Under the pieces are notes generated by a model. That model was not told the origin of the DNA. It worked only from the letters and a program-made list of their open reading frames with translations, and ran no database searches. The translations under genes were made by a program, and so were the position numbers. This document shows, piece after piece, positions 41,305 through 56,979 of a stretch of DNA of 64,000 nt (position 1 is its first letter; each line of letters opens with the position of its first letter). Source of the DNA: Candidatus Latescibacterota bacterium (lineage in GTDB: Bacteria > Latescibacterota > UBA2968 > GCA-2709665). The stretch is from contig CAXXXF010000007.1 in the NCBI GenBank assembly GCA_963667175.2, positions 1-64,000 of the forward strand, given 5' to 3'.

Positions 41305-42564
41305 ATGATGGCCAATGAACGTGAAAACCGGAAAATCCGGGTCGGCGTGGTCGGCGTCGGCCGCGGGCGCTCGTTTGCGCGAGCGGCCGGGGCGACCGGG
41401 ATGGGGCTTGTCGCAATTTGCGACACATGGGAAGAGCGGCTAATTGCAGAGGGTGAGGCGCTGAACGTTCGGACCTTCGTCGACTACGACGACTTCCTGG
41501 GCTGCGACATGGACGCGGTCGTGCTGGCGAACTATTTCCACGAGCACGCCCCGTTTGCCATCAAGGCGTTCAATGCCGGAAAGCACGTGATGAGCGAGAC
41601 TGCGGCCTGCCACACCCTCGGCGAAGGGGTCGCGCTGGCCAGGGCGGTCGAAAACAGCGGCAGGATTTTCATGTTCGCCGAGAACTACCCCTACATGGTC
41701 TTCAACCAGGAGATGAAGCGGCTCTATCTGGAAGGACGCGTGGGCGAGTTCAAATACGGCGAGGGCGAATACGTCCACCCGGACCCGCCCGAAGTGAAAC
41801 TGGGCCGAAGCTGCGGGCGAAACCACTGGCGCAACTGGACCCCGGCCACCTATTACTGCACGCATTCCATCGCGCCGGTCATGTACATCACCGACACCAG
41901 GCCCACCAAAGTGAATGGATTCGTGATCCCCTTCGATTTCGCCGACCCCTCGCAGACGTTGCACGTGAGGCGGTCCGACACTGCCGCGGTGATCATCTGC
42001 CGGATGGACAACGACGCGGTGATGAAGTCCCTCCACGGCGGGCTGCGCGGTCACGGCAACTACGTCCGCATCCACGGCAACAGAGGAGTGATGGAAAACT
42101 GCCGGCACGGCGACAAACAGCGGCTGCGGGTCTGGCGCGAACCGTGGGAGAAGCGCGAAAACGATCCGGTCGAAACCGTTTACAAACCCGACTTTCCCGT
42201 CCACCACGACAAAGCAACCCGCACCGGGCACGGCGGCGGCGACTTCTTCACCTCCTGGCACTTCGCCGAGGCGATCCGCACGGGCGAGCAGCCCTATCTG
42301 GATGTGTACAGGGGGATCGACATGAGCATCGCCGGCATCCAGGCGTGGCGTTCGGCGCTGAACGATTCCGCACCTTTGGAAGTGCCCGACTTCCGCGACG
42401 AATCGGTGCGCCGGAAATACGAAGACGACGACTGGTCGCCCGACCCCGCCCGCAAAAAGGCCGGACAGCCGCCCTCCAGCATCCTGGGCGACATCGAACC
42501 GTCCGACGACGCAAAGGAACTCGCCAAAACGGTCTGGGCGTCAAAGGGATACACCGCGGACTGA
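41305..42564 (+). CDS. Gfo/Idh/MocA oxidoreductase
   Basis: VGVVGVGRG, AGKHVMSE, FAENY, GHGGGD. Confidence 0.9.
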   Translation: MMANERENRKIRVGVVGVGRGRSFARAAGATGMGLVAICDTWEERLIAEGEALNVRTFVDYDDFLGCDMDAVVLANYFHEHAPFAIKAFNAGKHVMSETAACHTLGEGVALARAVENSGRIFMFAENYPYMVFNQEMKRLYLEGRVGEFKYGEGEYVHPDPPEVKLGRSCGRNHWRNWTPATYYCTHSIAPVMYITDTRPTKVNGFVIPFDFADPSQTLHVRRSDTAAVIICRMDNDAVMKSLHGGLRGHGNYVRIHGNRGVMENCRHGDKQRLRVWREPWEKRENDPVETVYKPDFPVHHDKATRTGHGGGDFFTSWHFAEAIRTGEQPYLDVYRGIDMSIAGIQAWRSALNDSAPLEVPDFRDESVRRKYEDDDWSPDPARKKAGQPPSSILGDIEPSDDAKELAKTVWASKGYTAD

Positions 42565-42720: not shown

Positions 42721-43680
42721 TTAAAAAAGCCGGGGCGCTGCAGCGGGCCCGGACGTCGAATCGCAAATCAGGTTTTCAAGTGACTCTAATTTGTCAGGAA
42801 TCCACCGTGCGCCCCTCTCGACAAGACTTGCATTGCCCGATTTCCTGTTTTCCGTGCGTTTCACCCAGAGGGGAACCCAGCCGGCTTTCAGGTTTTCGAG
42901 CGCGCCGTTCCACGTTCCCCCCCGGTTCGGCGTACTGCTGACCACAATTCCAGCCGCGGACAGGCAATAGATGTACCGGTTTCGGCCCATCGCGTTGCCG
43001 ACATTGAAACCCGCTTCCGGATTGAAAGGGGTTACCAGCACCAGGTCACGTGAAACAAGAAACTTGCGGTACTTCGCAGATGTCGCCGCCCGGATCAGAC
43101 TGTCCGCCAGAACGCCGACGGCAGTGCCTCCGCTCTCCAGTGCGCTCACCATTGCACTCTGGTCGACCCCGCGGGCTCCGCCCGATACGACCGTATGTCC
43201 CTGCCGAGCGGTGGCGGCGCCCAGTCTCTCCGCGAAAGTAAGGTCCGTTCGGCCGGCATTTCGGGAGCCGACGACGGCGATGCCGCCGCGCGGAAGCAGT
43301 ATCTTGTTTCCGCAGCCGAACAGCACCGGTGGAGATTCCAGCCGAAGCCGGCGTTTCAATTGTACCGGATACTCCGGATCGGATTGAGCAACGACCCACA
43401 GACCCGCACGCTGCCATCTCTCGAGCGACAGACCGAACGCCCCACCACGATCCATCAGGCTCTCGAGTCTGGCCAGCGTAATCGAACGATCCATCCAACC
43501 CGAGAGCTCGTTCTTCAATTCACCCTTCAACAAGGCCGACGCATCCAGCTTGCGATCCTTCAGCCAGGCCGCGAGGCGGGCCCACTCTCTCGGCGAAAGT
43601 GGTTTCGCCGTCGCCCCTTCGGATCTTCCAAACGAAACCGTGAGAAGCATCACCACCTGGGTATGGGAATCCAGATTCAT
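42721..43680 (-). CDS. dprA: DprA/Smf-like protein (island type)
   Basis: PPVLFGCG, AVVGSR, VSGGARGVD, AMGRNRYIY, GGTWNGA. Confidence 0.88.
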   Translation of the reverse strand: MNLDSHTQVVMLLTVSFGRSEGATAKPLSPREWARLAAWLKDRKLDASALLKGELKNELSGWMDRSITLARLESLMDRGGAFGLSLERWQRAGLWVVAQSDPEYPVQLKRRLRLESPPVLFGCGNKILLPRGGIAVVGSRNAGRTDLTFAERLGAATARQGHTVVSGGARGVDQSAMVSALESGGTAVGVLADSLIRAATSAKYRKFLVSRDLVLVTPFNPEAGFNVGNAMGRNRYIYCLSAAGIVVSSTPNRGGTWNGALENLKAGWVPLWVKRTENRKSGNASLVERGARWIPDKLESLENLICDSTSGPAAAPRLF

Positions 43681-44057: not shown

Positions 44058-46040
44058 CTATGCGTATACGGTACCCAACTTCTTCTTTTCTATCATTTTC
44101 AGCAGACCGATACCCTTCCAGCGAACAAACCAATGCGTTTTCTCCATCTCGCGTGTGATTTTGCACGCGGTTTCCTTATTGATTGTGCCAATAGCGGAGT
44201 TTCTCCGGTTCAATATTGGCCAAACACCCATCAAGAGTTCACCCCGTTTTGTTGCGTCTATATGAGGGCATGCCAACAGGTCGAGAAGAAGGTGTGTGAG
44301 TTCGGAATTGAAGGTAAGTTCATCCGCGGCCACAATTCTCTCACAAGCCGACCGGAACACATCATCTATTCGGTCTCGAAGACTACAGTCATCTCCATAT
44401 ATAAACAGTTGCACAATCACATTGAAATAACCTGCGTCCCTGAGGTCGGGCTCCGCGACATCCATGAGCTCGGCTGTAAGCGTTCCATCGTCAGTGAATT
44501 CTCTGACGCATGCAAGGATATTTAACAGCTCGATTGGTACAATCCGGTTTCTCTTAATTAGATCTTTCACCGCCGGTGATCTTGCGAACTGATTGGTCCA
44601 CCTAACTATCGCTTCTCGTGCGATCTCAAAACCCTCAGGATCGTGGTCGACGAAGTGTTGTCCCGTTCGCAAGATTGCATGTGAGAGGTTCTGCGATGAT
44701 GCAACCGTTGGATGAAGCATAAAGTAATGGAAACCGACTTCCAAAAGAAACAAGACCACTTGCCTATAGTCCAACGTCGCGATAGCAACTCCGTTTGTTT
44801 TCCTCGTTTGAAGGTGTGAGTCCGCCAGTTCGGTGATCTGGCGATCCACAGTGCTAATGACGTAGCTCGCGACCGCATCATATCCCGCCTGAGCGGCCTG
44901 GCAGGCAGCCTTAACTTCCCGAGTAAAGCTTAGAAAAAGAGAACGCCGTTTCTTGATCCGACTTGGAACGATTAAGCGGGTACCACAATGATCAGTTTCT
45001 TTAAATATTTGATTTTCAAGGTTTTGTATACTTACATCCACCCTGTCAATCACGATAGATTTGCGCGTGTAGAAGGGTCTCTCGAGATTCTCAGTCTTTC
45101 CTTCGTTAAGGTAGAGCTTATATTCAGATAGGGCATTCCGAATTTCATCCTGAATTATAGATGTTGATTCGCGGGTGTTGGCGAAAACATAGTAGTTGTC
45201 TACGTATCGCCGACAGTCAAAGTGGGTCTTTTCAGTAAGTTTAAACTGGTTCAGTCGGTCACGGAGGTTCTGATCGACCTTGGCAAGTATAATCTCGGCA
45301 AAGAGGCGACTCGCTTCCGGTCCTATGCAAATTCCGCTGGTCTCGCCGTAGTTAAGGGATCGCATTACAAGGTCGAATTGATTCCCAAATGATCGCGCTC
45401 TTGGGCTTTTCTTTGCGGACTCTTTATCCGTTACAGCCCATGTAATCGAGTGGGTATATATACTGTCGAAACATTTGCCTATGTCTAATATAAGCATATG
45501 CTTATACTTTTTTTCAAGTTGGATGTAATCTTCCGACGAAAAGAAGCGATACAGTCGGTTATATCGTCGGTAAGTGAAGTAAGTTTCAGGGTTTCTCTCG
45601 ATATTATCGACAGCGGACGCGTCAATTGAAGCATTCTTTCGGTTGTTTTCACCCCCAATAAACGATCTGCCTATACCTACAGGCTTGCGTATCGAAAATG
45701 AGCTCCGTCCGCCAAATTCGCAAATTAGCTGATCGTACTTTTCGTAAAATCTAGCGATTTTTGCCTGCCCGTGCGGATGGATCAGGCTCAGTTTCCTGAC
45801 ACCCTCTTCATCGTGCGCGATCGCATAAATGAACGGGATTGTATAGTTCCGCTTGCAAAGGACCAGAGCACCTATCAGCTCTTTCAATTTATCGGTTTTG
45901 GCATCGCATTCCGACAGGTTCTTGTAGAAACCATCATTGCTGAAAATTATCGGCACCTCAATTGGCGCGGTGTCCGTCAATACCGTTCGCCAGACGTCTG
46001 AACGGTTAAGTCGTACACGTCTCTTGGATGGGCTAGGCAT
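44058..46040 (-). CDS. drt3b: defence-associated reverse transcriptase Drt3b
   Basis: 660 aa; PIEVPIIFSN, LDIGKCFDSIYTHSITWA, GICIGPEASRLFAE, RYVDN. Confidence 0.9.
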   Translation of the reverse strand: MPSPSKRRVRLNRSDVWRTVLTDTAPIEVPIIFSNDGFYKNLSECDAKTDKLKELIGALVLCKRNYTIPFIYAIAHDEEGVRKLSLIHPHGQAKIARFYEKYDQLICEFGGRSSFSIRKPVGIGRSFIGGENNRKNASIDASAVDNIERNPETYFTYRRYNRLYRFFSSEDYIQLEKKYKHMLILDIGKCFDSIYTHSITWAVTDKESAKKSPRARSFGNQFDLVMRSLNYGETSGICIGPEASRLFAEIILAKVDQNLRDRLNQFKLTEKTHFDCRRYVDNYYVFANTRESTSIIQDEIRNALSEYKLYLNEGKTENLERPFYTRKSIVIDRVDVSIQNLENQIFKETDHCGTRLIVPSRIKKRRSLFLSFTREVKAACQAAQAGYDAVASYVISTVDRQITELADSHLQTRKTNGVAIATLDYRQVVLFLLEVGFHYFMLHPTVASSQNLSHAILRTGQHFVDHDPEGFEIAREAIVRWTNQFARSPAVKDLIKRNRIVPIELLNILACVREFTDDGTLTAELMDVAEPDLRDAGYFNVIVQLFIYGDDCSLRDRIDDVFRSACERIVAADELTFNSELTHLLLDLLACPHIDATKRGELLMGVWPILNRRNSAIGTINKETACKITREMEKTHWFVRWKGIGLLKMIEKKKLGTVYA

Positions 46041-47265
46041 ATTTCCAACATTTGATTAGCTGATTGAGTCTGTCCGGTGGAAAGTGGAAGTGGATTCTAT
46101 TGACGAACCCACCAGTAAATGTCAGTCTGAGCAACTCCTTCCTTTGAGATTTCGAAAGTACCTGCGCCAACGGACCACAGATTTTCCCTGTATTGGAGAG
46201 AAGGACCTTTCTCAAGAACTGATCCAGCTCCGTTAAAGCCGATGAAGGCCAGCTTATCAGTCCGTATGTATGGTACACACCCGCAAATCGGACGCGATCA
46301 TTTTTCGAGTCGTGAAAACTATAGTTGCAAGTCAGTAGCTTAAGACGATCGTGTAAGTCCTTGAAATCTTGGTCCCTAATGAATTGGAGCAGAGATCGTA
46401 TCACTCGGGTTTTTCGTTTGTTGATCTTTGATCGAGCGATGTCGATTCTAACCGTTCGGTCGTATGGAATTGAGTTTCCAATCTCGTGGACTTCAAAAGA
46501 GAAACCCAAATATTCGAACCTGTGTTCGATCGTTGGATTTGGGCTACGTTTGTTGCGAAATTCAATCAATCTGGTCTTCCGCGCGTTTAATCGTAGACCC
46601 ATAGGCAGAAGGTTTGCTATTTCCTTACGGAAAGACTTAAAATCACCGTCCGGTTGTGCGACTACAATGATGTCGTCGACGTACCTACAATACAACCGTA
46701 TCAATGATTTAGTTCTAACTTGACCGTCAAAGTCTTGCATATAGAATTCGCTCAACGCAGCGCTTATTGATAAACCGCGAGGCATACCACTGACACAATT
46801 GACAGCACACTGATCGATAAATCTGCCGAGGACAAGCCTCGTGCCGGGCGCTGTGAGCAAACGACATCTCAACAGTTCCTTCAAGTTATCTTGATCGATT
46901 GTTTCGTAAAAGCTCTGGATGTCGATTTTCGCTACGCAATACGGAAGCCCCTCTTCAAGAAGTAGCCGAAGGCGTCGAACAATCTCCACCCGGTTGCTCT
47001 GTTTCGTGTTCGCTATCGTTCGGAGATTCTCGGCCGCTTTCCGCAACACAAGCTCAGACGGAAGATGAGTCAGACGGTAGACTAACTTTCCTGATACGGA
47101 GTTGGTCTGCAATCGAAGATCCGTGAACCCGTTTCTACCAATTTCAGCGGCCTTGTTGATTATGGACGTACGCTTTATCGGATCTGTAAGTGACGGGTAT
47201 CGGCGGAAGTCGCTTGTGCGTATGTGGCGTTCAAGCGAACTCGCACTGAATGTAGGATCATACAT
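46033..47265 (-). CDS. drt3a: defence-associated reverse transcriptase Drt3a
   Basis: 410 aa; IDIQSFYETI, GMPRGLSISAALSE, RYVDD, FEYLGFSF; overlaps drt3b by 8 nt. Confidence 0.9.
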   Translation of the reverse strand: MYDPTFSASSLERHIRTSDFRRYPSLTDPIKRTSIINKAAEIGRNGFTDLRLQTNSVSGKLVYRLTHLPSELVLRKAAENLRTIANTKQSNRVEIVRRLRLLLEEGLPYCVAKIDIQSFYETIDQDNLKELLRCRLLTAPGTRLVLGRFIDQCAVNCVSGMPRGLSISAALSEFYMQDFDGQVRTKSLIRLYCRYVDDIIVVAQPDGDFKSFRKEIANLLPMGLRLNARKTRLIEFRNKRSPNPTIEHRFEYLGFSFEVHEIGNSIPYDRTVRIDIARSKINKRKTRVIRSLLQFIRDQDFKDLHDRLKLLTCNYSFHDSKNDRVRFAGVYHTYGLISWPSSALTELDQFLRKVLLSNTGKICGPLAQVLSKSQRKELLRLTFTGGFVNRIHFHFPPDRLNQLIKCWKYA

Positions 47266-47546: not shown

Positions 47547-48464
47547 TCAATTAGCTTCGTTGCCAGCTATGCTGGCCAAGGTCGCCGCGGATACATCACA
47601 GCCTTTAGCCAAGTACCCAATTCCGGCCTCAGACAACCGCGATGTCAACTCGTCGGAAAACCAGTTCGCCAAGGTTATTGCGAATTTGCACGGGATGTCA
47701 AACTCGCAGTCGTAGTAACGCGAAAGAAATGGAACGTCATTCACAGGAACATTCGGTACTTCATCTGTGAGTTCGGCATAGGCCAGAGTCTGAATCATGT
47801 GAAGTGTGAGTCGGGTAAACCATGCCATTCTATACGCACCGACGGATAGGCTCTGTGAGCCATCGTGCATCACCAAGTTTACCAAATCATCAGGTTCTGG
47901 GAGGTTGTCATTGCCGTGAAAAACATGGTCTCTAAACCCTGCGATCAGCAGGCCGGCCTTACCAAGCAGAGTGACCTCGCTCCCCTTCAATAGCCTCCGG
48001 CGGATAGCTGTCTTGTCCGTAGCAAGGGACAGACTGATCTGGTACACCGAAGTCACCAAATCGACGTGTGCGGGTGGAACCGCATTGAGCAATTCAATTC
48101 GGGCTTTATTACCCTTGGTTGTCAGTTGGCGGCCAGACAGAGACCGATGTCGGATCAACTCGTATGCATTCCAAACAAAATGAAAACGCACGAGTTCCAG
48201 CATGTAATCATCCAAAAGGTCACTTTGCCGATTATCATAAGCTGATGCACTGGAGCAATAGGACCAAGCCTTGTAGAGGTCTGCGGCAGATGCGTCTGTA
48301 ACGACACGTGAAACAGATGCGGGTGGGAACAAGGAATTTGCCGCCGAATACCACACAGACGATTCCCCCCGCATCACGTCATGGCCTTGGAACAGCTCAA
48401 GAAGGAAGCGCATCCGGGCGGACACTGTAGCCAGTGAAACGCGATGTGCAATTTGAATCTCCAC
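47547..48464 (-). CDS. hypothetical protein with HEPN-like motifs
   Basis: FHFVWNAYE helix and R-x4-H motif RDHVFHG. Confidence 0.55.
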   Translation of the reverse strand: MEIQIAHRVSLATVSARMRFLLELFQGHDVMRGESSVWYSAANSLFPPASVSRVVTDASAADLYKAWSYCSSASAYDNRQSDLLDDYMLELVRFHFVWNAYELIRHRSLSGRQLTTKGNKARIELLNAVPPAHVDLVTSVYQISLSLATDKTAIRRRLLKGSEVTLLGKAGLLIAGFRDHVFHGNDNLPEPDDLVNLVMHDGSQSLSVGAYRMAWFTRLTLHMIQTLAYAELTDEVPNVPVNDVPFLSRYYDCEFDIPCKFAITLANWFSDELTSRLSEAGIGYLAKGCDVSAATLASIAGNEAN

Positions 48465-48708
48465 TACTCAAACCATGCCGTGATATTGATTGTAAAGCTT
48501 CCGCGAGGGAATAGGCAATAACAGGATCCTTTCCGTGCCCTCTGTAAAAATGCTGATCGCAGACGTCGGTCGGGCTCGATCGGTGAAGAATGTTGTAAGT
48601 CTTTGAGGATGGCTTACTGTCTTGTCTTTTTACATGTCGCCCGGTATCGTAGTCAATGCGATCTTCGAGGGGCTAACTGAGATGCGGATCCGTGGCACTG
48701 TCCGCCGC

Positions 48709-49143
48709 TCACCCCACACTCACCGCCCCCAACAACACCGCCGGATTCTCGATTTCCTCGTTGAATGCAGCGTTTGCGAGTTTCTGGTCGAATGTCGCCA
48801 AACTGGCCTCGCGCCGGGTCGCCGTCTCGAGATAGCTCGCGTCATATACGGTCAGGTTGTGTCTTTGCGCGAGGTCCAGGACCGCGGCCTCGTTGCGTTC
48901 CGTGTCCTCGCACAATGAAAACCCGTCGGTCAGTTGAATCAGACATGCATCGAACTGCCGTTGGTTTATCCGGTTGAAGCGCTTAGCGTTGAGCAAGACG
49001 TTCCGAATCTCATACCAGAAGATGATCGGCGTGATGCTCTCAGTGGTATCGAGGTGTTCGAGAATCGTGCGCGCAAAGTGACTATAAACTTCGTCAGGCA
49101 GTAGTTGGGCCCCCATCACCGACGCGTCGATTACGGTGGCCAT
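48709..49143 (-). CDS. vapC: PIN-domain VapC toxin
   Basis: VIDASV, WYEIRNVL, LTVYDASYLE, LATFDQKL acidic PIN residues. Confidence 0.9.
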   Translation of the reverse strand: MATVIDASVMGAQLLPDEVYSHFARTILEHLDTTESITPIIFWYEIRNVLLNAKRFNRINQRQFDACLIQLTDGFSLCEDTERNEAAVLDLAQRHNLTVYDASYLETATRREASLATFDQKLANAAFNEEIENPAVLLGAVSVG

Positions 49144-51986
49144 CAGCCCCGGCCCTCCTCTTTCCATTGGCGGATTTCGTCTTGCGTGACTGGCCTCATC
49201 TCGCGTTGGCGTTCACTTGATTCGTTAAGCGCTTTTTTCCACAACAACGCGCCGAAAGTCCGGTGCTCGTCAGAGAACTCTGACTGGTTTATCCTCGTGT
49301 ATTTCCAGGCCTTTCCAGTGGCTTCGCTTACCCGCTTGCACCAATCCCTTGCAGCGTCGTCTTTTCGTTCAGTCCCTGGCCACTCACGGCCCTTGGTTTC
49401 GACAATCCAACTGACTTCGCCGCCCCCGACTTTCTGGACCACCACCCAATCGGGGAAATAGAAGCCGATTGCCCCACTCTTCTTCAGGTAATCGATCCTA
49501 AACGTGGATGCGGAACTCCCCTGTTCTGTGGTACCGAGCGCAGCGAAACGTGTGACGTCTCCAGCGCGGTCCAGGAAAACTGCGAATTCGCGCTCAAAGT
49601 GGTTGTACGTAGCCACGAGATTGAAGATAGTCTTCCTTGCCTCCATTAGTGGCAGATTTCTTTTCCAACCAAAGCGTTTCGTCATAGATAGTCGGAAATC
49701 CTCTTTTTCAAATGTTACCGCACGCCGCTCAATGGATAGTTCCCCGATCTTGCCCGCGATGTACGTGGCGATACTTTCTTGTAACTCCAATCTCGCTAGA
49801 TGGGAGCGGACATTATTATCCGTCAGTTCGATCTTGCGTCCAAAACATCGGTTTGAAACATAATTCTGTACGATAGGGTAAATTTCCGCGAAACAGTTGG
49901 TAAGGTTAGCGCGGTCAGCGGTCTTGTTGGCGATACTCGCCAAGAGTTCACGGGCTGAATTTGGTTCTACAGCAATGTCCGCCTGATGTACCTCCGTCTC
50001 GGTAGTAGCAAATTCCATTCTCAGGCGTATCCGGTATGCTTCGGATAGTTCTTGCCTCTGGTGAATTGCCTCAAGTAAATGAACTTTCAGCGCGGACACC
50101 TTCCGAAAATCATGGGTTAGAGTTGGCTTTGTGATCGGTATGGCGATGTCGTAATTCAGCCGTTCAAGCACGGGTTCGATGTAGACTGGCAACGGCGGGT
50201 TCTTTTTGGTGGTTACGACTCCTACCCCCTCCACTTCGAGTTGATGACGCAAGACGTTGAGCAGGTTGCGCGTGCCAAGCACTTCGAGTGTCTGGGTCTG
50301 GTCGGGGCTTATTTGCGTCATTAGCCGAAGTCCGCGACCGATGGCCTGTTCGGGAAGGATCTCAGCCGTCGCGGTGAATGGGCGTAAACCGAGAACTACC
50401 GTCACGTTCCGCACGTTCCATCCCTCGCGCAACATCATCACACTGACGATTACCTTAATTCTGCTCTCGGGCTTATCGATATCCCGCGCCGCTTTACGTG
50501 CTTTCTCAATGTCTCCTCTTCGAATTTCCCCAGTGTTGTCAGTGTGGATAACGAGCACTTCGGATTCCTTGAATCCGAATTCCTCCGTTTTGCACAGGTA
50601 CTCTCCCATTACATCAGCATGGGCGTTTTTCTCAGCCATAACAAAAAGCACTGGCCTCATGTTGAGTTTCCTATAAATCCGCCAGTGTTCCTTCCAACGC
50701 TGGACGGCGGCTCTTAACCAATATCCGTATTTCTCCACGACGTTTTTCTTATTGACGCTGTTGGGGTCTTCTGCAGGTTGATCTGGATCATCTTCTTTGC
50801 TGACGATGATGGGCGCCTTGACGATCCTATCCTCCACGGCCTGCGCCAATGGATAGTCCACGACTGTCCATGGGAAGTACATCCCGTTCTGGTCCTTGGG
50901 TGTGGCAGAAAAGTCGAGCCACATGCTGAGGCCCCGTGGCAACTTATCGTTAATGGATAGAAGCGATTGGCTCCAGGTTAGATCTTCCCTATGGACATGG
51001 TGCGCTTCGTCATTTAGTACGACGAGGTCCGGAAGTGACTTTACGCGATCCAACATTGAACGATGACCGGATGCCGCGAGGTCTTGTACGGGTTTCTTGC
51101 CCAGCATGAATTCAGCGGCGTTTTGCGGAGTCGGCCTCTTGTAGCGAGATTCGTAGAGTTGATGAATATTGGTGAGAAACAGATTCCCGGAAGGGTCGGG
51201 CTCAGCGGCTTCACCACGCAGGATCACCTTTTGAGAGAAAGTGCCATACCATTCCGGAGGTATTAACGGCAGTTCGTGGAATACCTGGTTGTTTGCAAAG
51301 TCCTTCTCCAACCGCTGGTAGACAATGACGTTAGGCGCCACGATGAGGAAGTTTGTGGAGAGCTCCGATCCTGGAACTAACTGCTTATGGAAGCGCGACC
51401 AAACAACTGCCATCGCCATCGCCCACGTCTTGCCGGAACCCGTGGCCATCTTGAAGGCAAATCGCCGGAGATTATCGGGCGGTAGGTCCTGTTCGCCGAC
51501 GCCATTCAGTTCCGGAACATATCGGCGAATCCGTCTTATTCCATTCGGTGTTGTTCTAAACTCGAGGTTCATCGATAGGAGGTCTTTTCGCTGAATCGAG
51601 CCTTGGGCCTTAATGAGAGCTTGAACATCGAGCTGACCCGCTATTTCCACCAACCAGACCAGTGTTTCTATAGCTTCCCTTTGGCAGAAGTAGTACCGAA
51701 ATGGAACGTCAAATCCGTCGACAATGTGGTCCTCGTCGAACCAAAATTCGAACAGGCGTCGCGTAACATCCGATGCCCCCTCATATCCCCCATTGCGCCA
51801 CGCATCAACTGCCTCGCGAACCTTCGGCACCAAAAGAAGATTACTTGGACGCCTTCCCGAACAATCCTCTCGCCATCCGGTTGGCACTTCGTCATCTCTG
51901 ACGAGGTAGGATGTTGGCCTTTCCCATGGACGCCGGTGTCGGATTTCGGGTAAATCGTCGTCGTATCTGATAACGGCTTTGGCCAT
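49143..51986 (-). CDS. res: type III restriction enzyme Res-like SF2 helicase-nuclease
   Basis: KMATGSGKT, NDEAHH, FSATP, MLREGWNV, EQAIGRGLR, PD..VETKG. Confidence 0.9.
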   Translation of the reverse strand: MAKAVIRYDDDLPEIRHRRPWERPTSYLVRDDEVPTGWREDCSGRRPSNLLLVPKVREAVDAWRNGGYEGASDVTRRLFEFWFDEDHIVDGFDVPFRYYFCQREAIETLVWLVEIAGQLDVQALIKAQGSIQRKDLLSMNLEFRTTPNGIRRIRRYVPELNGVGEQDLPPDNLRRFAFKMATGSGKTWAMAMAVVWSRFHKQLVPGSELSTNFLIVAPNVIVYQRLEKDFANNQVFHELPLIPPEWYGTFSQKVILRGEAAEPDPSGNLFLTNIHQLYESRYKRPTPQNAAEFMLGKKPVQDLAASGHRSMLDRVKSLPDLVVLNDEAHHVHREDLTWSQSLLSINDKLPRGLSMWLDFSATPKDQNGMYFPWTVVDYPLAQAVEDRIVKAPIIVSKEDDPDQPAEDPNSVNKKNVVEKYGYWLRAAVQRWKEHWRIYRKLNMRPVLFVMAEKNAHADVMGEYLCKTEEFGFKESEVLVIHTDNTGEIRRGDIEKARKAARDIDKPESRIKVIVSVMMLREGWNVRNVTVVLGLRPFTATAEILPEQAIGRGLRLMTQISPDQTQTLEVLGTRNLLNVLRHQLEVEGVGVVTTKKNPPLPVYIEPVLERLNYDIAIPITKPTLTHDFRKVSALKVHLLEAIHQRQELSEAYRIRLRMEFATTETEVHQADIAVEPNSARELLASIANKTADRANLTNCFAEIYPIVQNYVSNRCFGRKIELTDNNVRSHLARLELQESIATYIAGKIGELSIERRAVTFEKEDFRLSMTKRFGWKRNLPLMEARKTIFNLVATYNHFEREFAVFLDRAGDVTRFAALGTTEQGSSASTFRIDYLKKSGAIGFYFPDWVVVQKVGGGEVSWIVETKGREWPGTERKDDAARDWCKRVSEATGKAWKYTRINQSEFSDEHRTFGALLWKKALNESSERQREMRPVTQDEIRQWKEEGRG

Positions 51987-51988
51987 TC

Positions 51989-54049
51989 CTATTCCACCTC
52001 AATATCCATCGCTTGGGAAGTGTCGTTACCGAATATATCTATCACTTTGACTAAGATCCTATACTTACCTGGCGATTCATATTTGTGAGAATCGCTTGTC
52101 AGCGCGAGCGTTCGATCATTACGGGTCCGATAAGCCACCCATCCCTGCATAAAGGAGTCGTTACGGAAGTCCCAGTCCACCGCCCAATAGTCGATGTAGT
52201 CGGACCACTTCGTAACCTTTTCCCGCACTTCGTCAGGGATGAGTTCCGAATTCGGAATAACAAAATCGTCCAGCTTCACCCCAATTGTCTGCTTTGTCGG
52301 CTTAACGATGACTGCATTTAGATATGCGAGCTCGAAGAAGCGCACATCGTTCCTGTCCACAGCCTGCTGTTCCATCACTTCCCGAGGAATCTGCAGGAGA
52401 ATAAGCTTTACGCCTCTTGCTCTAGCAACGTTGTGCATCAACCCTCCGCTACGCACGCTGTTCTGCCCCGCAAGACCCATCTCCCACTCCCAGCCGAGTA
52501 CATGAAGTTCCCCCTGCCTTAATCGGATGCACTCGTCAAGTCCGTGTTGTATCTCGTCGATGGTAACGGGCGCCTCGACGGCGCCTATATGCACTAGGGC
52601 CTTTCCTTTCTTCCCGTGCAGATGTACCGATCCCGAAATCGGCTGAGCGCCGTAAAGCTTAAGGATGAAAGCCAAATATTCATACAATGCACGCTCACTT
52701 ATCACCCTATTCGACTTTTCGCCAAAGGTCATACCTTGCCAGTACTGGCGTTCGTATTTACCCAGATTCAGAACCTCAAAAGGCTGGCAATTCTGTATAC
52801 CCTGTAGCCGCTTTCGTGTGACATGCATAGCCCAGCGACCGAGATCACATCCGATCCATCGTCGGCCGAGTTTTTCGGCGATGGCTAGTGTTGTACCGGA
52901 ACCGCAAAAAAAGTCTGCGACAATGTCGTTAGGTCGACTGATCCATTCAACAATCCGAGTTAACAGCTGCTCGTGTTTTTGAGTCGCGTAGTCCTTGAGA
53001 TTCTCATATGTCTTTATGTCATCCCAAACTGTGTCTCCGACTTTATCGTTACGAGGTGGAAACCAATTTTCTACAGTTCCAGTTGAAGATTTCCGGATAA
53101 ATTCCAGCGTGCGACCCGTATCCCGCCAATATTCGACCAATGACCGATCGCGCCTATCTCTTAGGAACTGGTTGTAGTTTTCTACTGCGCGTAGCGCTCT
53201 CTTTTTTTGCCATTTCCACTGTCCATGGGTCGGTGTCTCCGAAAGCAATTTATACCTCATACTAGGCCGGTTAGCACCGCTCCAGAATCGATGCCAATAT
53301 CCGTCGGGTGTCGGGCTTTCGTAAGGAACCAACAGGTTTGGGACCCTTGTACTAGATTGTGCAGAGTACCAAAGCAACACATCATGACCTTGTGGTAACG
53401 ACGAAATGACATTGAACTGTCTTTGTAGATTTTTCGTTATGGGTCTGTGAAGCACTATTTCATTTCTGAAATTGTCGGCTCCGAAAATTTCATCTAACAT
53501 CAGCCTTAGGTATGGGCTTACATTTGGCGCCACGTGAACAAACAGGTGGCTCGCCGGTGACATTAAGGATTTTATCAGTTTCAAACGCTCGTTCATCATC
53601 GCCATGTAGCTGATTAGTCCCTGTCCCCATGTATCGCGGTAAGCTTTATCCTCGACAACTGATGCCGCCTTCTCAACTCTGAGATCTTCGTCACCAACCT
53701 TTGTCGAGAATGAGAAATCCGCCCCAGTTGCAAACGGCGGATCGATGTAAATCAGATCGACCTTTCCCGAAAACCTCGCAAGTAGCGAACCCATCACCAG
53801 CAGGTTATCGCCCCAGATGAGCTTGTTTTTCCAGCCATCTTCAAACGTGTCCCCCTCCTTACCGTCGTAAATGTCAAAAAGGGAACTCTGAACCCCTTCC
53901 TTTTTTGCTTCGCGTGTGGCGCGGCTTTCGTTGACAGTCTCGATCACCTGGAAGGGTAGATTGACTCGCGGAACTTCCCTTAGAGTTCCATCTTCGTTGT
54001 ACTTGCCGGGCCAGACTAACTCAGTCCTCGCAATGTCATTCTTTGCCAT
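51989..54049 (-). CDS. mod: type III Mod-like adenine DNA methyltransferase
   Basis: WGDNL, IYIDPPF, TQKHEQLL, DFFCGSGTT (beta-class order). Confidence 0.92.
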   Translation of the reverse strand: MAKNDIARTELVWPGKYNEDGTLREVPRVNLPFQVIETVNESRATREAKKEGVQSSLFDIYDGKEGDTFEDGWKNKLIWGDNLLVMGSLLARFSGKVDLIYIDPPFATGADFSFSTKVGDEDLRVEKAASVVEDKAYRDTWGQGLISYMAMMNERLKLIKSLMSPASHLFVHVAPNVSPYLRLMLDEIFGADNFRNEIVLHRPITKNLQRQFNVISSLPQGHDVLLWYSAQSSTRVPNLLVPYESPTPDGYWHRFWSGANRPSMRYKLLSETPTHGQWKWQKKRALRAVENYNQFLRDRRDRSLVEYWRDTGRTLEFIRKSSTGTVENWFPPRNDKVGDTVWDDIKTYENLKDYATQKHEQLLTRIVEWISRPNDIVADFFCGSGTTLAIAEKLGRRWIGCDLGRWAMHVTRKRLQGIQNCQPFEVLNLGKYERQYWQGMTFGEKSNRVISERALYEYLAFILKLYGAQPISGSVHLHGKKGKALVHIGAVEAPVTIDEIQHGLDECIRLRQGELHVLGWEWEMGLAGQNSVRSGGLMHNVARARGVKLILLQIPREVMEQQAVDRNDVRFFELAYLNAVIVKPTKQTIGVKLDDFVIPNSELIPDEVREKVTKWSDYIDYWAVDWDFRNDSFMQGWVAYRTRNDRTLALTSDSHKYESPGKYRILVKVIDIFGNDTSQAMDIEVE

Positions 54050-54114
54050 AATGGTGTTCCTCTTATGCACCAAAGAGAAGAGACCGATTGTTTGGGAATC
54101 TATTCCGTCCCGTA

Positions 54115-56979
54115 TCAATTGGCCACTTCTGATCTTTCGATTACGCCTTCCGAATGGCACAGCATCCGCAGGTCGCACTCCTGGCAGATTTTCGCCTCGG
54201 GTGGCGTTTCGACCGCGAACTGTCCTGTCTGAATTCGATGAACCGTCTCGTCGAAGTGCCGTCCCGCCTTTTCCACGGATTCCGGTCGGTACGGCAGGAC
54301 CATCAACGCTTGTTCCTTCTGTTCCTCAGCGGTCCAATAAAGGAGCAGACGGTCAACGTGTTTTCCGTGTCGCTGCTCCAGAATGTGCGCATACGTACAG
54401 AGTTGCCGTTTGTACGCCGAGATAAGCTCGGTGGAGTTCGTCGGACGTGGGGACGTCTTGAAATCAAGCAGTTCCAGCTTTCCGTCGCCGCCGAGCAACA
54501 GGTCCACTTTTCCGGTCAGGATGTATCCGTCCTTCTCGAGCGAGACGTCCACCTCAGTCTCAACGATCCGGTTCATTGCCTCCTGATTCTGTTGAAAATA
54601 GTTGATTACCTGGGTGAATGCCAGTTCTTTTGCTTTTTCGCCGATCGGACGCCTGCCGGAATGGTGCAGAAACCGGAACGTCCGCTCAAACAACACCTGT
54701 ATGTGTTCCTCGTTCAGCGTATCAAGCTGCCCGTCGAGCGCGAATCTGTGGATGTCCTCAATTGTCTGATGGACGAGCAGTCCGAAGTACATCTCGGCGG
54801 AACGTGAGGGGGTAAAGTCGTATTCGCGGAAGAATTGGTATTGACGAGGGCAGGTTTCGTAAACCTTCAGGTCGCCGGTGAAGCTGTAGGTCTTTTTCAC
54901 CGGCATCCGCTCCTGAGGTTCGAAGGACTGAGCGGCCAGCGTTTCCCTCCGGACGTACGGCCATTGCGGGAGCCCCTGCCAGATTGACGCGAAGTAACCC
55001 TTCGGCTGATCGTGGGCTGTAAGTACGAGCAACTTCTGCGGCCTCGAAAATGCCACGTAATGCAATCGCATCCGATCGAAGAGGGTGATCCGTTCCTCGG
55101 GCTCGAAGGGCGGGCGGTGATAGAATTGCCCGAGATGGCGGTCGATTTGCTTTGGGCTGCTAAGAGATACGGTAAGCGACCCAACCACGACCACGGGAAA
55201 CTCCAGCCCCTTCGCCTGATGGATGGTCATGACCTGAACGTGGCCCCTTGGGAACGGCCGGTCCGGATCCTCGTATTCGTTGATGCCGCCGGCGTATAGG
55301 AACCGTAAGAAGCTGCTGAAAAAGTGAAAGCGGATATACTCGCGATTCCTGTGCGTAATCACCGAGTAGTGGTAGTAGGTTTGAAAGACATTCAGCAGCT
55401 CAGAAAAAATGGCCAGGTTGCGGGCGATGTTTTCGTCGCGAACGGCACTCCTGAACGGTTCAAACGCGAGCAATCGGTAGAAATAATCAGCGGGACGCAG
55501 GTCGAGCGTCTCTCCCTCCTGAAGTGCGGCCATTTCATCTGTCCATCGTCTGAGGGCTGCGGACAGCGGGTGCGGAGGAGCGCAGTTTTCACTGAGCTCG
55601 ACAATGGCCTCGTCCACATACGTAGCGAGTTGCTTTACCACACCGGCGATTTCCCCACGCTGATCCCCATACCAACCGAACAGGACGGCATAACAGGCGA
55701 CAAGATCGCGAATCACCGGAATTTCGAAAAAGGCGCGTGCCCTTGGACAGAACGCCGGGATTCCCTTGCGCTCGAGCGCATCCGTATAGGGTCCACTGTG
55801 TTCTACGCGTACGCTATGTAGCAATAAGGCAACTTGACTGTAGTCTGAAATAATGCCGTTCACTTTCAGGAAATCGACCATGTCAGCAAATCGGTCGGCT
55901 TCATCAGTACTGTCGCTGCCCCATATGCTGATAACGGAAGGGTAATCCGGGTGCGTCCCTTCAGCGTCTGCGACGATCGTCTTGTCGTGACGGTACGATC
56001 CCCCATCCCGGTTGGACCAATCGCTTGAGGCCATCCAGCGGTCGTAGCGTTCCACAATCGCACTGTGGGACCGGTAATTGGTTGTCAGCCGTGCGATCCG
56101 GCAATCCCCGACGTTGTCCGCGAACTCCAGGATGTTGCGTACGGTCGCGCCCCTGAAGCGATAGATGCTCTGGTCCTCGTCTCCAACGACGCACAGATTT
56201 TTCTCGGTTCCCGCCAACTTGAGGAGAAGCTGTTCCTGGATGTAATTCGTGTCCTGGTATTCGTCTACCAGAAGATACCGCACGTCCGGAGCCACAGCTT
56301 CCGCTTGTGGGTCTTGCTCTAACAGCCCGTAAACATGCCTTTGCAGGTGGGCGAAATCGACCCGGTTGCCCGCCGATAGGGCCCGCACATAACGTTGATA
56401 GGCGGAACCGATCGCCGCGACGAACGAGTCGTCGGATGCTGCAAGTCGGCAAGGATCGACCAGTTCTTCCGTGATCTTGTCAAAAAAGCCGCGTGCGCCC
56501 TGAATCGCCGTCCAGCGCGTCGTCCAACGCGTGAGGAACTTGCCGTCTTCGGAAGGACCGATAATCTCGTCAAAGTGTTCAAATATGAACAGCAGTTGTG
56601 TCAACTCGTCCAGCGTTTCGTAGTTGTGTCCGAGCGCCGTGCGGTGCCGGTGTTGGGAAAGCACGCGGTCGCAGAATCCGTGGATGGTGGAAACTGTGAG
56701 CTCAGAAAGGTCTACGTCGAATCGAACCGTGCGAGCGGCTGCCGCCAGCCGGTCCCGCATTTCAAAGGCGGCCTTTTCGGTGAAGGTGCACAACACGATC
56801 TCCTTCGGCTCAGCCTTTCCCAACATCAATAGATTCAATGCCCGCAGGACGATGCTGAACGTCTTGCCGGAGCCCGGTCCCGCAATCACGAGCAACGGGC
56901 CGTCCAGATGGCCAACGACTTCCCGCTGACTGTGCGTGAGTTCCGGATAGTGCCTCAGTATGGCCGGCGTAATATTCAC
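54115..56979 (-). CDS. UvrD/REP helicase fused to PD-(D/E)xK (Cas4/AddB-like) nuclease
   Basis: AGPGSGKT, VDEYQD, GDEDQSIYRFRGA, TIHQAKGLEF; CPRQY..GKVDL..DFKT..CQEC..C. Confidence 0.9.
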   Translation of the reverse strand: MNITPAILRHYPELTHSQREVVGHLDGPLLVIAGPGSGKTFSIVLRALNLLMLGKAEPKEIVLCTFTEKAAFEMRDRLAAAARTVRFDVDLSELTVSTIHGFCDRVLSQHRHRTALGHNYETLDELTQLLFIFEHFDEIIGPSEDGKFLTRWTTRWTAIQGARGFFDKITEELVDPCRLAASDDSFVAAIGSAYQRYVRALSAGNRVDFAHLQRHVYGLLEQDPQAEAVAPDVRYLLVDEYQDTNYIQEQLLLKLAGTEKNLCVVGDEDQSIYRFRGATVRNILEFADNVGDCRIARLTTNYRSHSAIVERYDRWMASSDWSNRDGGSYRHDKTIVADAEGTHPDYPSVISIWGSDSTDEADRFADMVDFLKVNGIISDYSQVALLLHSVRVEHSGPYTDALERKGIPAFCPRARAFFEIPVIRDLVACYAVLFGWYGDQRGEIAGVVKQLATYVDEAIVELSENCAPPHPLSAALRRWTDEMAALQEGETLDLRPADYFYRLLAFEPFRSAVRDENIARNLAIFSELLNVFQTYYHYSVITHRNREYIRFHFFSSFLRFLYAGGINEYEDPDRPFPRGHVQVMTIHQAKGLEFPVVVVGSLTVSLSSPKQIDRHLGQFYHRPPFEPEERITLFDRMRLHYVAFSRPQKLLVLTAHDQPKGYFASIWQGLPQWPYVRRETLAAQSFEPQERMPVKKTYSFTGDLKVYETCPRQYQFFREYDFTPSRSAEMYFGLLVHQTIEDIHRFALDGQLDTLNEEHIQVLFERTFRFLHHSGRRPIGEKAKELAFTQVINYFQQNQEAMNRIVETEVDVSLEKDGYILTGKVDLLLGGDGKLELLDFKTSPRPTNSTELISAYKRQLCTYAHILEQRHGKHVDRLLLYWTAEEQKEQALMVLPYRPESVEKAGRHFDETVHRIQTGQFAVETPPEAKICQECDLRMLCHSEGVIERSEVAN

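Follow-up and report, generated by a model that had tools for sequence, protein, structure and literature searches.

Background

Restriction genes are the dispensable and costly half of restriction-modification (RM) systems and decay easily. In some RM operons the restriction enzyme also holds a toxic ribonuclease in check: PrrC, an ABC-ATPase-like N-domain joined to a C-terminal anticodon nuclease in a Type I hsd locus, is masked by the whole enzyme, with no defined antitoxin peptide. Passages of a 2025 review of RM systems describe this RNase as being held latent by EcoprrI within the RM operon and freed on inhibition of the enzyme (PMC12707154). Here we describe a Type III-like mod-res operon in a 64,000-nucleotide stretch of DNA (contig CAXXXF010000007.1, positions 1 to 64,000; hereafter the window) from a Candidatus Latescibacterota bacterium, in which the restriction subunit, Res, ends in an antitoxin-like tail and is directly followed by a gene for a PIN-domain toxin, vapC. 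We consider it probable that this operon is an RM system with a built-in VapBC-type toxin-antitoxin (TA) pair, in which Res would itself be the antitoxin and cell viability would be tied to the presence of full-length Res.

PrrC with EcoprrI is the closest functional analogy to the locus, the logic being alike and the parts different. VapC is a single PIN domain of 144 amino acids (aa) in a Type III-like RM system, whereas PrrC is not a PIN protein and sits in a Type I (Ic) system, and a recognisable antitoxin segment is here grafted onto Res. A second analogy is one of concept. Li et al. reportedly found in 2021 that CreTA RNA toxin-antitoxin pairs safeguard CRISPR-Cas, with Cascade repressing the toxin gene; in both cases the toxin would be neutralised only with the defence effector intact, and the defence genes become addictive as a result. 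Unlike the RNA-based CreTA, the present system is predicted to work by a protein-protein interaction through a fused peptide. With Type III enzymes such as EcoP15I (Mod2Res) the locus shares the gene order mod-res, an N6-adenine methyltransferase as Mod, and a Res that joins a superfamily 2 (SF2) helicase to a C-terminal PD-(D/E)xK nuclease; it differs from them in the extra tail and the coupled toxin gene. Type III enzymes cleave DNA in an ATP-dependent reaction that requires a pair of unmethylated sites in inverse orientation.

PIN-domain genes close to or transcriptionally coupled to Type I RM genes, some of them without an antitoxin gene, are described in the parts of Matelska et al. (2017) that concern RM loci, where an interaction of TA with RM systems is stated as not yet shown (PMC5499597). 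The passages on sensing of restriction enzyme inhibition in the 2025 review name PrrC and its relative RloC only, with no mention there of VapC or PIN domains (PMC12707154). Searches of the full-text literature, limited to papers available without subscription, turned up neither a restriction subunit with a fused antitoxin segment nor a VapC coupled to a Type III RM system. The linkage of tailed Res and vapC is real, conserved and apparently undescribed.

A toxin neutralised only by full-length Res would police res against every truncating mutation, and such policing would explain the persistence and cross-phylum spread of RM systems of this kind. It would also present the toxin-binding segment of an antitoxin as a portable tag of ~30 aa carried on an unrelated enzyme, which widens the definition of type II TA systems and would explain some of the orphan toxins, sited near defence genes, that pipelines annotate as having no antitoxin. 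The arrangement would connect RM physically to TA or abortive-infection systems in a way that can be tested directly, and the tag could serve to render engineered genes addictive.

Results and Discussion

The tail is an addition to a Type III-like restriction subunit

Res carries SF2 helicase motifs (ATGSGKTW and NDEAHH) and, further on, a C-terminal PD...ExK nuclease core (FPDW...VETKG), after which the tail begins; with the Pfam and PADLOC matches of Table 1, these motifs give it the SF2 helicase/ATPase and C-terminal PD-(D/E)xK endonuclease of a Type III RM system. The gene directly upstream of res encodes an N6-adenine (beta-class) DNA methyltransferase, as in Type III systems, whose translation shows DPPF and FxGxG motifs. 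To the curated Type III models Res bears only a distant relationship, with 70 bits for PADLOC REase_III and 13 bits for NCBIfam PRK15483. The NCBIfam model NF046055 (BPTD_3080) matches it with 279 bits, the match ending at residue 900, and this family name was rejected for Res, the cut-off being 800 bits. True BPTD_3080 members (~1000 aa, >1300 bits) are a different paralogue, one of which also occurs in the same genome. This bona fide BPTD_3080-family enzyme lies at G000:C16:415508-418501 (1353 bits), with a C-terminal fragment of a BPTD_3080 enzyme (model positions 873-969) nearby at C16:413785-414090.

A search with Res returned 1469 homologues at E<=1e-10. The best 120 of these fall into two length classes, tailed proteins of ~944-953 aa that cover the whole query and tail-less proteins of ~916-933 aa that cover 89-92% of it, the latter ending about a dozen residues past a conserved RINQxxF. 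At the level of sequence, then, the last ~34 residues of Res are an add-on. In a tree built without the tail, the 29 tail-less Res proteins group in a single clade (support 1.0) that midpoint rooting places among the 81 tailed ones, so that a single gain or a single loss of the tail suffices; the existence of these close tail-less homologues also implies that the tail is dispensable for restriction. An AlphaFold2 model of Res 758-947 (mean pLDDT, the predicted local distance difference test score, 79) shows the nuclease core followed by helices at 911-929 and 935-944. A Foldseek search of this model against the PDB returned nothing at E<=0.001, matches to PD-(D/E)xK nucleases being weak and all at E>0.001.

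The open reading frame (ORF) of Res ends in exactly ...GALLWKKALNESSERQREMRPVTQDEIRQWKEEGRG (residues 914-947), the string quoted in an earlier reading of the window that had only the letters and their ORFs to go by (the sequence-only reading). When the last 59 and 39 aa of Res were scanned against Pfam and NCBIfam, no antitoxin family emerged, the sole match being DUF4847 at E 0.054, and Res as a whole, its last 59 aa included, yielded no Phd/YefM, AbrB, RHH or HTH domain. Because the tail motif is too short for library models, we built an antitoxin profile of our own.

The tail resembles the toxin-binding end of free-standing antitoxins

Eighty genomic loci with VapC relatives were fetched and the ORF ending at each vapC start was inspected. 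In 47 of them this ORF is not a Res but a small one, of about 50-100 aa where the start could be read. Among 14 such ORFs tested, 10 are Pfam PhdYeFM_antitox and the other four are short Chloroflexota ORFs without a family. The small ORFs have a common ending, with the consensus ...ERDxRxxMSxEEIRxxRDEGRx; a plasmid copy from Cereibacter sphaeroides, whose annotation reads prevent-host-death family antitoxin, ends in ...ILSARDEGRR.

The profile was built from the last 35 aa of 44 small free-standing antitoxins, mostly Phd/YefM, with no Res in the training set. It matches 73 of the best 120 Res homologues at E<1e-3 (best 1.2e-10), and the matches are C-terminal, 73 of 76 rows ending no more than 5 aa from the terminus. 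The Res of the window is matched at residues 930-946 with E 4e-4 (999-sequence database), the next best ORF of the window standing at E 0.36; this likeness, to a profile that contains no Res, is more than chance. With the profile applied to the ORFs at the vapC junctions, 32 of the 33 Res-linked loci (E<0.01) and 47/47 small-ORF loci prove to have the motif, 44 of the latter matching by construction because they were in the training set. These junction counts come from an unfiltered (--max) scan; a scan of all loci with the default filter missed 13 weak Res tails. The suspicion of the sequence-only reading that Res ends in an antitoxin-like segment is therefore borne out, since the tail resembles the C-terminal toxin-binding segment of the Phd/YefM and short antitoxins that are paired with the same VapC subfamily.

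Among the closest known systems are Phd/YefM-VapC modules such as the annotated pair on Cereibacter sphaeroides plasmid c (NZ_CP015214.1), whose toxin belongs to the same VapC subfamily (42.6% identity over residues 4-132). The two share the C-terminal antitoxin motif, an antitoxin ORF that ends at or overlaps the toxin start, and a predicted mode of inhibition by covering the PIN active site. They differ in that the window's segment comes without a DNA-binding domain, and hence without an autoregulation module, and is the C-terminus of a 947-aa restriction subunit rather than a separate small, labile protein. In VapBC systems the toxin arrests growth and co-expressed antitoxin relieves the arrest. 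Of the upstream antitoxin with a toxin-binding C-terminus that characterises these systems, the toxin-binding segment is present by homology, with binding predicted, but as a part of Res and not as a gene of its own.

It is very unlikely that the neutraliser is a free small antitoxin made from an internal in-frame start in the 3' end of res, and not Res itself. The free antitoxins of Dehalococcoidia relatives are only 51-72 aa long and have no DNA-binding domain, and the tail in the window does contain a methionine, Met930. That position, however, is M, L, V or I in homologues, as expected of a hydrophobic structural position and not of a conserved start; the window has no Shine-Dalgarno-like sequence ahead of Met930, and there is no conserved in-frame start ~50 codons before the stop.

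Synonymous codons of the conserved E-G-R vary among the homologues (GAG 18, GAA 10; all four GGN; CGG, CGT, CGC and AGA). Conservation of these residues thus acts at the protein level, and not solely on a ribosome-binding site.

Tail and vapC occur together

A Res homologue lies directly upstream of vapC, ending at its start, in 33 of the 80 VapC loci. Full-length Res was found in 28 of these, and the remainder comprise one Res cut by a contig end, three C-terminal remnants and one fragment without a C-terminus. The tail is present in 32 of the 33; in the exception, L012, a single deletion takes both the Res C-terminus and VapC residues 1-62. The Res-linked loci carry at least six phylum labels, among them Gemmatimonadota, Latescibacterota, Chloroflexota, Pseudomonadota (alpha and gamma), Acidobacteriota and Actinomycetota, and the fusion is retained down to 53% identity in Res and 39% in VapC. 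The junction of res and vapC has zero offset in 23/32 tail-bearing loci and an offset of -12 to +12 nucleotides (nt) in the rest. In five gamma- and alphaproteobacterial loci (L013, L029, L030, L052 and L064) the tail runs four residues beyond the motif (...RDEGRREWLL), and because of this extension the two genes overlap by 13 nt and not by 1.

Res relatives from outside the tailed group were surveyed as well. No tail and no VapC was found in 80 metagenome Res loci that a query without the tail retrieved (the C-terminus is complete in 72, and 57 of these have at least 450 nt of downstream sequence), in 30 loci of the true BPTD_3080 family, or in 11 distant gammaproteobacterial Res, one of them (L221) from a genome flagged as unpublished. 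These 11, together with the tailed Res of the seed genome, were all that a search of 401 Gammaproteobacteria genomes with Res returned, which makes that search a poor Res-centred sample of the tailed clade. A plasmid DNA search with the junction region gave no match.

Within the window's own phylum, a search of 168 genomes with Res gave 18 matching genomes and eight full-length tailed Res, the window's included: vapC is intact beside five, disrupted by an insertion sequence (IS) beside one (L194), frameshifted beside one (L197) and deleted to ~5 codons beside one (L198). In L194 (genome G058) the break falls after ~55 codons, at an insertion with a 410-aa transposase-like ORF, and the tailed Res is intact. 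The same scan gave six Res remnants, and vapC is broken or deleted in all six. Five of them keep Res ~775-947 with the tail, next to a vapC that is frameshifted (L003/L204), has a stop and a mutated active site (L007/L209) or is deleted to 5-10 codons (L206-L208); in the sixth, L012/L205, the tail and the VapC N-terminus are both gone. In a further remnant from outside the phylum scan (L033) vapC is truncated at about residue 92. We had considered the C-terminal remnants (~775-947) as minimal antitoxins for a live VapC, a candidate that was dropped, each of them adjoining a broken or deleted vapC.

The states found are thus Res+VapC+, Res+VapC- and Res-VapC-; an intact VapC without an upstream tail-bearing ORF was never met among the loci examined. 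The survey proposed with the sequence-only reading accordingly came out in its favour, tail and vapC going together and tail-less Res relatives lacking vapC, and the finding that would have told against it, a tail in Res homologues that never had vapC, was not made. Tailed Res without vapC occur only beside traces of toxin loss, and the 5-10-codon stump, IS insertion or frameshift left behind marks that loss as recent.

The tail is predicted to cover the PIN active site

VapC has 89 homologues, and in a 28-sequence alignment of them its acidic tetrad (D6, E45, D101 and D119) is invariant, as in the PIN-domain toxins of VapBC systems; the tetrad is retained in 78/92 related rows, the exceptions being mostly visibly broken copies. 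The closest solved PIN domain is PAE0151 (2fe1, E 2e-14).

For a complex prediction, VapC and the C-terminal 50 aa of Res were each supplied as an alignment. The interface score (ipSAE, the interaction prediction score from aligned errors) reached 0.68, 0.89 and 0.89, against 0.32 for the best of three controls; in a calibration that holds here only approximately, 116 of 157 solved complexes and 2 of 215 mismatched pairs attain that mark. Contact agreement among the runs was at least 57%, and partner pLDDT at least 62. The predicted interface joins Res 912-946 to VapC 7-8, 11-21, 45-53, 98, 100 and 118-119 and so flanks the catalytic residues, in agreement with the proposal that the tail binds VapC around its PIN active site.

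This placement bears on whether VapC is instead a working accessory subunit that is recruited by the tail, for example to cut phage transcripts or R-loops near the DNA target. The tight operon with its apparent translational coupling would suit such a role, as would the constancy of the mod-res-vapC unit, a Mod homologue standing upstream of Res in 28/28 full-length Res-VapC loci. An interface over the active site, however, would imply occlusion and not presentation of the RNase, the tail motif is that of ordinary Phd/YefM antitoxins, whose known job is inhibition, and close tail-less Res systems occur without VapC. We regard an accessory role as unlikely.

Covariation lends the predicted contacts independent support. 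A tail tryptophan at Res 941, four positions before the invariant glycine, pairs with a leucine at VapC 51 in 19/19 cases, whereas tails without the tryptophan have Leu51 in 9/58, and the pair VapC 51/Res 941 is among the predicted contacts of lowest error. Trp at this position occurs in three separate lineages: the clade of the window, a gammaproteobacterial subclade and one free-standing Balneola antitoxin.

The same observations speak to the possibility that the fusion is a fossil, in which the tail, the 3' end of a vapB once brought onto res by a deletion, is carried along by hitch-hiking, VapC being inactive or neutralised in some other way. A single origin of the fusion is possible, and vapC has decayed in several lineages. 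The motif is nevertheless kept, with synonymous codon turnover, down to 53% Res identity; intact VapC copies retain the catalytic tetrad; the contact pair shows compensatory-looking covariation; and no conserved alternative partner lies downstream of vapC in related loci. A fossil is accordingly an improbable explanation, on a par with the internal start. In the VapC tree the Res-linked toxins form two clades (9 and 20 rows) and two single rows; their group, which the tree leaves unresolved, also takes in the Chloroflexota toxins with antitoxins of the short, 51-72-aa type.

Organisation of the operon

The genes mod, res and vapC form one tight operon on the minus strand (Table 1), with 2 nt between the end of the mod ORF (51989, stop included) and the start of res. 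At the second junction, which reads GGC TGA TG G on the minus strand, the res stop (TGA, 49145-49143) and the vapC start (ATG, 49143-49141) overlap, and this overlap suggests that translation of the two genes is coupled. A GAGGAGG spelled by Glu-Glu-Gly codons of the Res tail may be the ribosome-binding site of vapC. The PIN ORF has an alternative upstream ATG at 49167 (152-aa form); we placed the start at 49143 because most of the listed homologues are 140 or 144 aa long and the 28-sequence consensus begins MATVIDAS. The core motif of the tail contains Ile938, Trp941 and Arg946. Neither the res-vapC junction nor the 244 nt that follow vapC contain a separate antitoxin ORF (at least 40 aa, minus strand); the TGATG overlap and the missing antitoxin gene that the sequence-only reading had reported both hold in the ORF list and the junction sequence. 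A promoter and terminator scan of 48300-54600 found sites no more numerous than in shuffled sequence.

Table 1. Genes and sequence elements of the mod-res-vapC operon (window positions)
Feature	Positions	Strand	Evidence or remark
mod, Type III DNA methyltransferase, 729 aa	51989..54178	-	Pfam N6_N4_Mtase 1e-30; PADLOC MTase_III 1.7e-113
res, Type III-like restriction subunit, 947 aa	49143..51986	-	Pfam ResIII 4.5e-16; PADLOC REase_III 2.5e-20
Antitoxin-like Res tail, residues 914-947	49146..49247	-	Not carried by the close Res homologues of ~916-933 aa
Core motif MRPVTQDEIRQWKEEGR, Res 930-946	49149..49199	-	Region matched by the antitoxin C-terminus profile
GAGGAGG, Shine-Dalgarno-like, for vapC	49154..49160	-	Read from sequence; 10 nt upstream of ATG
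TGATG, overlap of res stop and vapC start	49141..49145	-	One base common to both
vapC, PIN-domain toxin, 144 aa	48709..49143	-	Pfam PIN 3.9e-11

A model for Res as the antitoxin of VapC

In silico, the homology of the tail, its strict co-occurrence with vapC, the predicted binding and the covariation of a contact pair all point to Res as the probable antitoxin. In the model that we propose, the antitoxin would have lost its DNA-binding domain, and its toxin-binding segment (~30-35 aa, two helices, ending in ...EIRxW[KR][ED]EGR) would have been fused in frame behind the Res nuclease domain. The Res tail would wrap over the PIN active site of VapC and keep the RNase inactive, like the corresponding segment in free Phd/YefM-VapC pairs, and VapC, if toxic, would be harmless only while full-length Res is made. 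Since the peptide is translated last, a frameshift, nonsense mutation, deletion or IS insertion in res would remove it.

The most likely consequence, to which we give a little less than an even chance, is that the module makes res, an RM gene otherwise free to decay, addictive. Such a safeguard fits the findings that truncating lesions would remove the tail and that the Res-VapC+ state is absent. A second role, compatible with the first and more tentative, is that the RNase may be released when Res is depleted, degraded or blocked in phage infection.

This second role could also be the primary one, the Res-VapC complex serving as a sensor, a guard or abortive-infection trigger. VapC would be set free by a phage that depletes, degrades or inhibits Res, or by a shut-off of host expression in which a labile tail is proteolysed, and its RNase activity would abort the infection, much as with PrrC once EcoprrI is inhibited by T4 Stp. 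The binding step is common to this explanation and to addiction, and the two differ only in what selects for binding. A guard would be in keeping with the predicted tail-VapC binding, with the position of the locus in a defence island that holds DRT3 and a PsyrA-like gene, and with other Res relatives in which different C-terminal extensions are followed by PIN, Fic/Doc, DUF6883 or Peptidase_C13 effector genes; as a precedent for an RM enzyme that holds an RNase latent, PrrC/EcoprrI is described in passages of the 2025 review (PMC12707154). The sequence, on the other hand, offers no route from phage inhibition of Res to release of the peptide, no phage trigger is known, and vapC is often lost while Res is retained. 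We consider a primary guard function possible and, on balance, doubtful.

Several points weigh against the reading of Res as an addictive antitoxin. With vapC broken in 3/8 full-length loci of the phylum, the toxin is easily lost and any addiction would be leaky. Should ribosomes have to finish res before vapC can be translated, new VapC synthesis would fall as well on a nonsense mutation in res, and killing would then need VapC to outlive Res. The window's own tail is a weak profile match, of 15.9 bits over the last 17 residues only. As Glu-Glu-Gly codons would double as the vapC ribosome-binding site, conservation of the motif could in part lie at the nucleotide level, and the fusion may be of single origin. 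VapBC structures exist, so part of the high complex score may stem from likeness to known pairs, and the pass does not prove binding by this copy; the calibration counts are only approximate for a prediction that used our own alignments. Finally, the loci are related and not independent samples, several of them occurring in both scans, and some of the broken vapC copies (L003 and L197) are single frameshifts in metagenome-assembled genomes, maybe assembly errors.

Other Res extensions and the surrounding defence island

Res relatives with other C-terminal extensions were encountered during the survey. L119:5743-6302 has a 47-aa Res tail and an ATGA-overlapping PIN gene (PF01850, 3e-7) of another subfamily that the VapC profile does not match; L116:5755-6249 has a 35-aa Res tail with a Fic/Doc fragment (2e-8) 172 nt downstream; L141:5500-6308 has a Res-fused DUF4926 (4e-8) and an overlapping DUF6883 gene (9e-23); L115:5758-7990 has a 209-aa Res extension followed by a GmrSD_N gene; and L200:401-1503 has a Res extension of ~115 aa with an ATGA-overlapping gene for a caspase-like Peptidase_C13 (4.5e-5).

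A speculative possibility, which we would hold at less than an even chance by some distance, is that the Res C-terminus is a general docking point for effector-neutralising modules, restriction enzymes often being armed with a second, suicidal effector that is freed on loss or disabling of the enzyme. Should L119, L116, L141 and L200 be genuine analogues, fusion to Res would have coupled RM systems to toxins several times over, and this coupling would form a widespread layer that joins innate restriction to abortive infection or gene addiction.

Downstream of vapC the window holds further genes on the minus strand. A 305-aa ORF (47547-48464) between vapC and Drt3a has no match in Pfam, PADLOC or NCBIfam and is absent beside VapC in all 80 + 19 related loci. 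It is followed by a DRT type 3 pair that is complete and whose stop and start overlap, Drt3a at 46033-47265 (PADLOC 1.1e-130) and Drt3b at 44058-46040 (8.9e-187), and then by a PsyrA-like DprA/SLOG-like protein gene at 42721-43680 (PADLOC PsyrA 6.6e-128). The ORF list has no large PsyrT-like partner adjoining this last gene, which may be a solitary antitoxin-like gene. In two loci of the same genus (L207 and L208, genomes G053 and G046) a Res remnant with a vapC stump of ~10 codons lies within ~0.35 kb of the end of a homologue of the window's oxidoreductase-like ORF at 41305-42564; because the stump adjoins this homologue, the stretch of ~6 kb from vapC to the PsyrA-like gene is absent there, which marks a boundary of the island.

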